Source: Escherichia coli
Lineage (GTDB): Bacteria > Pseudomonadota > Gammaproteobacteria > Enterobacterales > Enterobacteriaceae
Direction: 5' to 3' (one strand)
NCBI RefSeq assembly: GCF_048403405.1
Contig: NZ_CP183129.1
DNA length: 64,000 nt
The translations under genes and the position numbers were made by a program. Below, piece by piece: positions 56,185 to 57,464 of this stretch. The notes beneath the pieces are model-generated. The model saw only the letters and a list, made by a program, of their open reading frames with translations. It had not been told where the DNA came from and did no database searches. The number at the start of each line of letters is the position of its first letter. Positions within the stretch are counted from its first letter, which is position 1.

Positions 56185-56442
56185 TTATTTCCCGGTGTGA
56201 GGTTCTTCTTTATATTTATGGGCTAACAAATCTGGTAATTGCCTGTATTTATCCTCGGCAATATATTCAGAATAATCGACAGCACTGTTCAGTATATCTA
56301 ACGCCGTTTCATGCTCCAGATTCGAAACTATAAGGAACGTTGCTACTTTTAGCATATTCGCGATATGCAAAAGAGCATCAATTTCATTTTTTGGCGCTTC
56401 ACTGAATTTTTGCTCCAGAAGAATAAATCGTTCATCACGCAT
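56185..56442 (-). CDS. Hypothetical protein (85 aa)
   Basis: ORF 2 nt upstream of the 100-aa gene. Confidence 0.5.
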   Translation of the reverse strand: MRDERFILLEQKFSEAPKNEIDALLHIANMLKVATFLIVSNLEHETALDILNSAVDYSEYIAEDKYRQLPDLLAHKYKEEPHTGK

Positions 56443-56638
56443 AGTATTCCCCCTGACGGATGCGGGCAGTAAATACCATCACGCAGCCAGCCGGGGATTG
56501 CTGACGGGCTTCCTGTTCGCTGGCGGCCTCGATGTGTATTACGCGTGGTTGTGCGGTGCTCAGGGCGATAAAACGCCAGATGTATTTATTCAGGTTGTGC
56601 GAGTCCCGCCCTTGCGGGTGTGTGGTATGATTTAACAT
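56435..56638 (-). CDS. Hypothetical small protein (67 aa)
   Basis: ATG (complement of 56636-56638) preceded by GAGG at the proper spacing. It is the 3-prime segment of an otherwise implausible 345-aa ORF in the track. Confidence 0.4.
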   Translation of the reverse strand: MLNHTTHPQGRDSHNLNKYIWRFIALSTAQPRVIHIEAASEQEARQQSPAGCVMVFTARIRQGEYYA

Positions 56639-56735
56639 AGCTACCTCGATACGCTTTCTATCGTTGGTGGTTAGACGCCCTGCATGTGTTGCGAGCACTG
56701 CGGGGCGTTGCTTAATTTGAGCAATGCAACCCAAA

Positions 56736-56771
56736 CTGTGCGCACAGATTAAAATCATGTGTGCGCACATG
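56736..56771. promoter_or_regulatory. Two GTGCGCAC-core palindromic operators 20 bp apart in a divergent promoter region
   Basis: ctgtgcgcacag (56736-56747) and catgtgtgcgcacatg (56756-56771); further copies at 56805-56816 (half site) and 57069-57081. Confidence 0.6.
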
Positions 56772-56843
56772 TCAATACTTAACTTCTCACTTTTTTTGCT
56801 GTATTGTGTGCGCCCATCAAATCCATTTAAGTGAGGTGTACCA

Positions 56844-57041
56844 ATGTCTAGCGGAAACACAAACAACAAATCAGCAAAGAAAAATATTCGATTCCCGCAC
56901 GAGCTTATAGATGGGATTGATGCCAGTGTTGAACAAGAAAAATTAACTAATCCTAGTGCTAATTTTTCCGCATGGGTCTTAGATGCCTGTGGACGCAAAT
57001 TAAAATATGAACAGCGCCGGAAGGCCAAAGAGCAGGAGTAA
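56844..57041 (+). CDS. Small basic protein (65 aa), putative ribbon-helix-helix-type repressor
   Basis: GAGGTG ribosome-binding site 5 nt before the ATG; KKNIRFPHELIDGIDASVE...FSAWVLDACGRKL fits a beta-strand/helix/helix pattern; sits beside the palindromic operators. Confidence 0.55.
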   Translation: MSSGNTNNKSAKKNIRFPHELIDGIDASVEQEKLTNPSANFSAWVLDACGRKLKYEQRRKAKEQE

Positions 57042-57098
57042 CCATCACCAGCGCCGTGGTGCGGTGAACTGTGGCGCACAGGGTTACAGGTATCTACG

Positions 57099-57296
57099 AT
57101 GACTGACAAATCATTAAAGAAATTATCCTCATCCAGGAAAAAACAACGCAAAAATGCGGTAAGCGAACAAGAACAGGAAAGATTTGCGCCATGTGCGTTT
57201 GTCCTTGAGAAGTTCTTAAAAGAGTACAGGCGCACAAAAATGGGATCGCATACCTGGAAAACATCGCAGTATGGCGATGCTAAAGAGCAGGAATAG
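57099..57296 (+). CDS. Small basic protein (65 aa); shares a C-terminal AKEQE ending with the upstream small protein
   Basis: ORF only; weak ribosome-binding site. Confidence 0.4.
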   Translation: MTDKSLKKLSSSRKKQRKNAVSEQEQERFAPCAFVLEKFLKEYRRTKMGSHTWKTSQYGDAKEQE

Positions 57297-57464
57297 CCCA
57301 CCAGCAAGCCAGCACACTGATCACATTGCCCACCAGCCGCAAATCTGGCATTGTTGGCGATGCGTTTGATTTCCTTTGTTCCCACTGGCGACCTATCCCG
57401 GTCGCCTTTGTTTTGCCTGTTATCCAGCAACGGGGCGCTTTTTCTTTCTGTAACGTTCGGATCG

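Follow-up and report, generated by a model that had tools for sequence, protein, structure and literature searches.

The immI region of phage P22 combines the ribbon-helix-helix (RHH) repressors Mnt and Arc with Pant and Pmnt, the sar antisense RNA and ant. Among phage satellites, the phage-inducible chromosomal islands (PICIs) of Gram-positive bacteria are governed by Stl/Rpr, whereas for the Gram-negative PICIs only an activator, AlpA, is known, and it was considered unclear whether any global repressor exists in these islands (Fillol-Salom et al. 2018, PMC6092414). Helper-dependent induction, packaging and transfer have been shown for EcCICFT073 and EcCIMP1 (PMC6092414, PMC11773190), and C4/isrK immunity RNAs are reported from some Gram-negative PICIs (HE-PICI paper, PMC10111431). 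Here we analyse a divergent control region in a 64,000-nucleotide stretch of the Escherichia coli contig NZ_CP183129.1 (assembly GCF_048403405.1; hereafter, the 64-kb window), in which a leftward (minus-strand) replication operon and two small rightward (plus-strand) genes, ylcI-like and sm2, are transcribed away from each other. Judging from the sequence, this region is reasonably likely to be the maintenance switch of a Gram-negative PICI-type phage satellite that employs a YlcI repressor and an antisense RNA. The case is built on conserved sequence features, on operators that co-vary with an arm of the small protein, and on the structure and strand of the RNA.

The island in the window carries int, a gene for an AlpA-like helix-turn-helix protein, a Bro zone, and genes for a DUF927 primase, SSB and PerC, which is the gene content of a PICI, and its zones match those described for Gram-negative PICIs (PMC10111431). 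In a near-identical E. coli locus (H1), the island occupies ~19 kb between dinD and yicC. A core of int, AlpA, YlcI, Icd-like, DUF4222, primase, SSB and PerC genes is common to the window island and EcCICFT073 (NC_004431.1 1377930-1388654). The latter starts with int and AlpA, followed on the opposite strand by sm2-like and YlcI/YnfO genes, and continues with the Icd-like, DUF4222, primase, SSB, PerC and capsid genes. A literature search found no paper describing the switch module, including the one in EcCICFT073.

Operators, promoters and the YlcI-like protein

The first of the small rightward genes (56844-57041, plus strand) encodes a 65-aa protein of the YlcI/YnfO (DUF3950) family, a candidate RHH-type repressor. 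The assignment is supported by a score of 59 bits against NCBIfam NF041551 (cut-off 30), a match to Pfam PF13132 (DUF3950) with an i-E value of 1.6e-6, and a match to phrog_949 with an E value of 9e-28; the ribosome-binding site that a preliminary description of this DNA had assigned to the gene is GAGG at 56834-37. That description also noted palindromes in the divergent region, and these are indeed present. Operator O1 (56736-56747; the operators have no strand) is a perfect 12-bp palindrome, CTGTGCGCACAG, lying over the -10/+1 junction of the predicted leftward promoter. Operator O2 (56758-56771) contains a perfect 10-bp palindromic core, TGTGCGCACA, at 56760-56769; it sits in the spacer of the same promoter, abuts the -35 element and is always directly followed by GTCAA, that is, TTGAC on the minus strand. 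The 16-mer originally quoted as a perfect palindrome, catgtgtgcgcacatg (56756-56771), is palindromic in this 10-bp core and not over its full length, and the spacing, originally given as 20 bp, is 23 bp centre to centre (8 bp edge to edge) between the two exact copies of TGTGCGCACA found in the window. The additional sites that had been mentioned were found as well. One of these, operator O3 (56805-56817), has a 9/10 core, TGTGCGCCCA, at 56807-56816, 47 bp beyond the second exact TGTGCGCACA, and overlaps the end of the rightward -10 element and the position at which the ylcI-like transcript is predicted to start; the other lies between the two small genes and is discussed with them.

As words, these motifs are not over-represented in the window: the 8-mer GTGCGCAC occurs 3 times against 1.9 expected, and the 10-mer, with at most one mismatch, 4 times against 3.5 expected. 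Clustering of three matches within 100 bp was seen in none of 400 Markov simulations. Relative to the ylcI-like start codon, the three motifs lie at -107, -84 and -37, and the locus from Rahnella contains three perfect copies of TGTGCGCACA at exactly these offsets.

The predicted leftward promoter, P_left (56746-56775, minus strand), was read from the sequence and its conservation. It consists of a -35 element, TTGACA (56770-56775), and a -10 element that is either TTTAAT (56748-53, 16-nt spacer) or TAATCT (56746-51, 18-nt spacer). The predicted rightward promoter, P_right (56779-56807, plus strand), combines a weak -35 element, TTAACT (56779-84), with TATTGT (56802-07) across a 17-nt spacer, and O3 begins at the last base of this -10 element. 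The minus-strand TTGAC is retained in 27 of 31 loci, and O3 is immediately preceded by a TAnnnT element that the loci have in common.

A scan with the YlcI alignment, using one genome per species, yielded 32 YlcI-encoding loci, 30 of which were used for the operator comparison. Apart from Escherichia, they come from Serratia, Rahnella, Pectobacterium, Klebsiella, Pantoea, Xenorhabdus, Brenneria, Affinibrenneria, Proteus, Providencia, Symbiopectobacterium, Arsenophonus, Gilliamella and Orbus, so that, altogether, 15 genera of Enterobacterales and Orbales are represented. When the loci are aligned on the start codon, the operator geometry is base-exact in all 30 loci of the 15 genera and also in EcCICFT073. 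The common order is a hairpin with a T-rich tail, O1, ~10 nt, O2 and GTCAA, followed by a T-rich stretch, TAnnnT, O3, the ribosome-binding site and ATG. In EcCICFT073, the intergenic region contains two copies of GGTGTGGCCCAC, then GTCAAG, then TATACT and GTCCCCCACC. Of 5426 complete E. coli genomes, 1428 contain a match to the 1.4-kb region surrounding the module, over at least part of its length.

The operator arms, TG...CA, are constant, and the centres vary between loci but match among O1, O2 and O3 within each locus. The class of the operator goes with the residues immediately preceding an invariant IRFPHE motif in the YlcI-like protein: KKN with TGTGCGCACA, TTKG with GGTGCAyAwACAC, KKH with GTGTGnACCCAC and KRKD with TGTCCGCACA. 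In a Mantel test, which removes shared ancestry only in part, operator distance correlates with the distance of the 10-residue arm before IRFPHE (r 0.68), and the correlation persists when the rest of the protein is controlled for (partial r 0.66, p 2e-4); no contribution comes from the remainder of the protein (partial r -0.11). The ylcI-like gene alone always adjoins the operators. The integrase gene lies on the right of the module in every case, and the Bro-zone genes and the primase vary between loci. Because the arm tracks the operators, while other genes vary, decay or are confined to Escherichia, the YlcI-like protein is the best candidate for the operator-binding protein.

The RHH-like pattern that was originally noticed in this protein is plausible as a fold and, on the weak support available, likely but unproven. 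The alignment-based AlphaFold2 model contains an extended N-terminus and two helices (predicted local distance difference test (pLDDT) score 74.6), and shorter, 59-aa E. coli relatives contain a canonical RHH turn, the one from EcCICFT073 being named YlcI/YnfO family by the Prokaryotic Genome Annotation Pipeline. Significant similarity to a known RHH family was not found in either the Pfam or the PDB searches. The best RHH-type match in Pfam is HicB_lk_antitox, with a non-significant E value of 0.25; phmmer and profile searches of PDB sequences with the YlcI-like protein retrieved nothing significant, and a 'Protein delta' match with an E value of 0.74 was dismissed as noise. A Foldseek search of the monomer model against PDB returned no match, and the AlphaFold2 model of a GGGGS-linked tandem dimer was unusable (pLDDT 43). 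The covariation of the N-terminal arm with the operators is the sole, and indirect, support for a dimer that would insert an antiparallel two-stranded sheet into the major groove.

One of the two K-12 members of the family, ynfO, lies in the Qin prophage (L038 4757-5458), upstream of ydfO, with which it forms a two-gene unit on the strand opposite to the lambdoid late genes. No obvious operator triad was seen upstream of this gene; thus, the YlcI/YnfO family also exists outside the context of the PICI switch.

A predicted antisense RNA opposite the first leftward gene

The preliminary description overlooked a probable second layer of control, a predicted structured RNA that is absent from Rfam. 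The stretch between the start codon of the first leftward gene, which encodes an Icd-like protein, and O1 is highly conserved, and the plus strand of this stretch is predicted to encode a cis-antisense RNA of ~80 nt (56638-56719) opposite the icd-like ribosome-binding site and start codon. Two 5' helices of the RNA face the ribosome-binding site and start codon and are followed by a terminator hairpin (56674-56709); the RNA is fully complementary to the start codon, the ribosome-binding site and ~80 nt of the leftward leader sequence. Its putative promoter is an extended -10 element, TGGTATGAT (56623-56631, plus strand), with the hexamer TATGAT at 56626-31, located within the first icd-like codons. 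Across 24 loci, TGnTAnnnT is found at a fixed upstream distance, with the G of TG and the T, A and final T of the hexamer invariant or nearly so, and this promoter is kept even though the underlying codons specify different amino acids, or the icd-like gene has decayed or given way to another.

RNAalifold analysis of 24 distinct loci produced three helices, with compensatory changes in 16 of the 22 pairs. The fraction of paired cells is 96.6%, compared to 82% in shuffled alignments and ~40% with slid partner columns, and none of 500 shuffles was as good. With the caveat that the structure was derived on the plus strand, all strand comparisons favour that strand: 72 G.U pairs on the plus strand versus 4 on the minus strand, 96.6% versus 83.7% paired cells, and a mean minimum free energy (MFE) of -34.3 versus -20.9 kcal/mol, the plus strand being the more stable in 24 of 24 loci. 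For the copy in the window, the MFE is -39.9 kcal/mol (z -5.15). EcCICFT073 has the same antisense-RNA promoter and a hairpin with compensatory changes (the module spans L044 15240-15960).

The single-stranded GUUGGUGGUUAGA of the RNA (56663-56675) is nearly invariant across the 15 genera. The single-stranded GUUGUGGUUAGA is likewise nearly invariant. Each has one copy only in the window, and complementarity in cis is not enough to explain such near-invariance; the conserved stretch may be a protein-binding site or the seed for a target in trans.

Searches with Rfam detected no C4/isrK or other match at the module within 55500-59500, even at E<=1; at the gathering score, there was no match to the module RNA in 40000-64000 and none at the module in 20 related loci. 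A different RNA, the Rfam int-alpA motif (RF02996), occupies the interval from int to alpA in five related loci (L011 7042-7108, L023 5206-5275, L024 4331-4399, L026 7542-7611 and L034 6381-6446), and none was detected in the window at the gathering score (40000-64000).

Genes flanking the switch

The gene content was taken from the RefSeq annotation of near-identical E. coli loci and from family searches, which agree. The first gene of the leftward operon (56435-56638, minus strand; GAGG at 56644-56647) encodes an Icd-like protein of 67 aa that scores 68.6 bits against NF033153 (cut-off 25). This gene corresponds to the last 67 codons of a 345-aa minus-strand open reading frame (ORF) that the preliminary description had judged to be spurious, apart from a possible real gene with a GAGG ribosome-binding site at its end, and this judgement was correct: the other 278 codons match no PHROG family and are unannotated in RefSeq, so that the long ORF is spurious except for the icd-like gene. 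The Icd-like protein is annotated as 67 aa in the RefSeq record of the near-identical E. coli locus H2 and in others. One RefSeq record, that of H1 (L001 9336-9671), gives it 111 aa, with the start at 56770, inside O2; the extra stretch (56639-56770, minus strand) is probably an annotation error. Searching with tblastn and the Icd-like protein of the window under-detected relatives, and when the first leftward ORF of each locus was translated, most turned out to be Icd-like. The gene is replaced or decayed in seven loci (L010, L012, L015, L017, L020, L022 and L030), in which the operators are kept.

The remainder of the leftward operon (53757-56442, minus strand) encodes an 85-aa protein, a DUF4222 protein and the DUF927 primase-helicase, with overlapping start and stop codons, and is followed by SSB, ProQ/FinO and PerC genes. 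The analogy with FinP/FinO suggests that the ProQ/FinO-family protein (52590-53087, minus strand) could plausibly serve as a chaperone of the antisense RNA.

The second small gene, sm2 (57099-57296, plus strand), encodes a 65-aa basic protein (phrog_21027) and is an accessory gene, found only in Escherichia and missing from every non-Escherichia locus compared, that is co-transcribed with the ylcI-like gene. The rightward ylcI-sm2 transcript ends at an intrinsic terminator (57387-57416, plus strand) detected by the terminator scan as GGCGACCTATCCCGGTCGCC followed by TTTGTTTTGC; no minus-strand terminator was found between AntA and the switch region. The protein family has mosaic N- and C-termini around a conserved core, F.LEKFLKEYRRTK. 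The two small proteins had been described as sharing only the C-terminal AKEQE. At the protein level, they are indeed dissimilar, given that BLASTP detected no similarity between them; at the DNA level, they have more in common, namely, direct repeats of 17-20 nt at both ends of the two genes (56866-56882/57106-57122 and 57024-57043/57279-57298). The common AKEQE tail is accounted for by the 20-nt direct repeat at the 3' ends, and some variants of the second protein lack this tail. The terminal repeats at both gene ends suggest that recombination through the ends of the ylcI-like gene created the second gene or brought it in; there is no support for the second protein being a paralogue of the first.

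Between the two small genes lies the operator-like fourth site, CTGTGGCGCACAG (57069-57081, strandless), which has a 1-nt insertion and is the sole variant of this kind in the 64-kb window. We considered it as a conserved operator and rejected this possibility, because the site has no counterpart in the sister loci L040, L042 and EcCICFT073, which carry other operator classes. By sequence comparison, this palindrome and the second small protein both appear lineage-specific and are therefore placed outside the conserved switch.

Further away, three large genes (44654-51523, minus strand) resemble those for podovirus internal-virion/ejection proteins (phrog_684, phrog_3003 and phrog_1044, the last with an SLT domain); they are not accompanied by capsid genes and look like captured helper late genes in the late zone. 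On the other side of the switch, the window encodes AntA and Rha (57465-58899); most of the near-identical E. coli relatives (L002 4366-5740) encode BRO-N and AntA instead, with an indel of ~550 bp. This cassette difference in the Bro zone is in keeping with the 'dynamic zone' of Gram-negative PICIs, for which domain swapping has been described.

Proposed mechanism, alternatives and comparison with known systems

The preliminary reading of the region as a genetic switch for the replication genes is supported by the comparison across loci, namely, the conserved operator and promoter geometry and the covariation of the operators with the arm, and by the translational coupling within the leftward operon. 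We propose that the YlcI/YnfO protein would be made from the weak P_right and, as an RHH-type dimer, would read the short TG...CA palindromes with its N-terminal arm and strand. In the quiescent island, repressor sitting on O1 and O2 would make the spacer and the -10/+1 region of the strong P_left inaccessible, silencing the translationally coupled icd-like/DUF4222/primase/SSB operon, and weaker occupancy of O3 would limit the synthesis of the repressor itself. The ~80-nt antisense RNA, presumably constitutive, would run across the icd-like start codon, ribosome-binding site and leader, end at the hairpin just before O1, and block the translation or trigger the decay of those transcripts that escape repression; because the genes of the operon are translationally coupled, it would also block primase expression. 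The switch is probably flipped when, upon helper induction, AlpA-dependent leftward transcription converges on ylcI and on the promoter of the RNA and reads into the replication operon. The Ant/Rha proteins of the Bro zone may add antirepression where they are present; EcCICFT073 lacks them.

Several points weigh against this scheme. Binding, repression, expression of the RNA and the flip by a helper phage are steps that we infer from the sequence. The consensus promoter scan flagged neither P_left nor P_right, because of which both calls rest on manual reading and conservation; the scan misses TTTAAT, which does not have A at position 2, and TAATCT and TATTGT, which fall under its threshold. 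In the E. coli copies, the hairpin is followed by a poor U-tract (UUGCUUAAUUUG), and the support from the Mantel test is tempered by its incomplete removal of shared ancestry. Finally, overexpression of AlpA alone induces EcCICFT073 (PMC6092414), so that any repressor must be one that AlpA can override.

The operators could be real and yet be bound by another protein, such as AlpA, the Icd-like protein, the second small protein or a helper-phage protein, with the YlcI-like protein doing something else. The Icd-like families phrog_6196 and phrog_1743 are labelled 'transcriptional repressor' in PHROGs, and an icd-like gene is likewise found next to the operators in most loci; however, the operators persist in the seven loci that do not have an intact icd-like gene, the second small protein does not occur outside Escherichia, and the operator class specifically tracks the YlcI arm, so we consider a different binder unlikely. 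Boxes for host factors (CRP, PurR, LexA-like) were rejected upon comparison with their consensus sequences; a host factor is also argued against by the operator centres, which differ between elements within one host genus. If the YlcI-like protein does bind, it might activate the leftward operon or serve as an accessory factor in excision or replication, given that some RHH and other small DNA-binding proteins activate transcription or act architecturally and that the -35 element of P_right is weak. The placement of O2 in the spacer between a consensus -35 element and the -10 element and of O1 over the -10/+1 region is, in contrast, typical of steric repression rather than of activation, and such an activating or accessory role appears to us very unlikely.

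Given that the repeats adjoin the replication module and that short repeated sites are typical of origins, they might also be taken for origin iterons or for binding sites of the primase or an initiator. This interpretation is hard to reconcile with their fixed register, to the base pair, relative to the -35 and -10 elements that are conserved on each strand and with their covariation with the small protein, while primase identity varies freely between loci; furthermore, the region has neither an AT-rich unwinding element nor a larger array of iterons, and we assign this possibility only a marginal probability. As for the hairpin, it lies within the 5' untranslated region of the leftward operon, and the plus-strand RNA is predicted from sequence, so the structure might belong to the leader of the leftward mRNA or be a DNA element rather than part of a separate transcript. 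Yet the G.U counts (72 versus 4), the pairing and the MFE all favour the plus strand, a T-rich tail follows the hairpin on that strand only, and the invariant TGnTAnnnT lies at the right distance upstream, which makes a leader structure or DNA element quite unlikely.

Returning to the repressor and antisense RNA switch, the module in the prototype EcCICFT073 offers a concrete and directly testable repressor candidate for the Gram-negative PICIs. More tentatively, with somewhat less confidence than would be needed to favour it, we suggest that the YlcI/YnfO (DUF3950) proteins could be the missing master repressors of these islands. They would form an RHH immunity family with specificity classes set by the 10-residue arm and would work with an undescribed conserved cis-antisense RNA, whose GUUGUGGUUAGA may bind ProQ/FinO or a target in trans; the switch would be flipped by AlpA read-through or by Bro-zone antirepressors. 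If true, this would provide a function for a DUF family with two members in K-12, ylcI and ynfO, and the specificity classes could explain immunity or incompatibility between co-resident islands. The analysis further contributes a predicted, conserved small RNA not represented in Rfam and corrects the annotation with respect to the spurious 345-aa ORF and the 111-aa Icd-like start within an operator.

The closest known functional analogue of this module is P22 immI, with Mnt/Arc and sar. In both, a small RHH-type (here, candidate) repressor is encoded divergently from the operon it controls or would control, the operators overlap back-to-back promoters, and one gene of the controlled operon has its ribosome-binding site covered by a short (here, predicted) cis-antisense RNA. 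No sequence homology between the two was detected, and they differ in layout and target: here, there are three spaced sites of 10-14 bp, whereas P22 has one operator each for Mnt and Arc, and the genes under control would be the satellite replication genes, with the RNA aimed at the first of them, whereas P22 controls an antirepressor.

The immI region of P1/P7 (c4 RNA, icd, ant) and the CI RNA of P4 are similar in that an RNA controls (here, would control) the translation of an Icd-like first gene to which the downstream genes are translationally coupled, and in serving the immunity or maintenance of a mobile element. However, C4 and CI are processed from the strand of their own target and act via short loops, whereas the RNA described here lies on the opposite strand; together with the lack of an Rfam match to the C4/isrK covariance models, this sets it apart from the C4/CI family. 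FinP/traJ/FinO of F-like plasmids likewise involves a stem-loop cis-antisense RNA of ~80 nt opposite the ribosome-binding site of the first regulatory gene, and the island, too, encodes a ProQ/FinO-family protein; the biological context is different, and the connection between this protein and the RNA is suggested by analogy. Stl/Rpr of the Gram-positive PICIs (SaPIs) shares with the module a (here, candidate) repressor that is divergent from the excision/replication operon of the satellite and keeps, or would keep, the island quiescent. Unlike Stl, a large helix-turn-helix repressor encoded on the int strand and removed directly by helper-phage proteins, the candidate repressor here is a 59-68 aa RHH-like protein encoded on the strand opposite to int, in islands for which the known inducer pathway goes via AlpA (PMC6092414).

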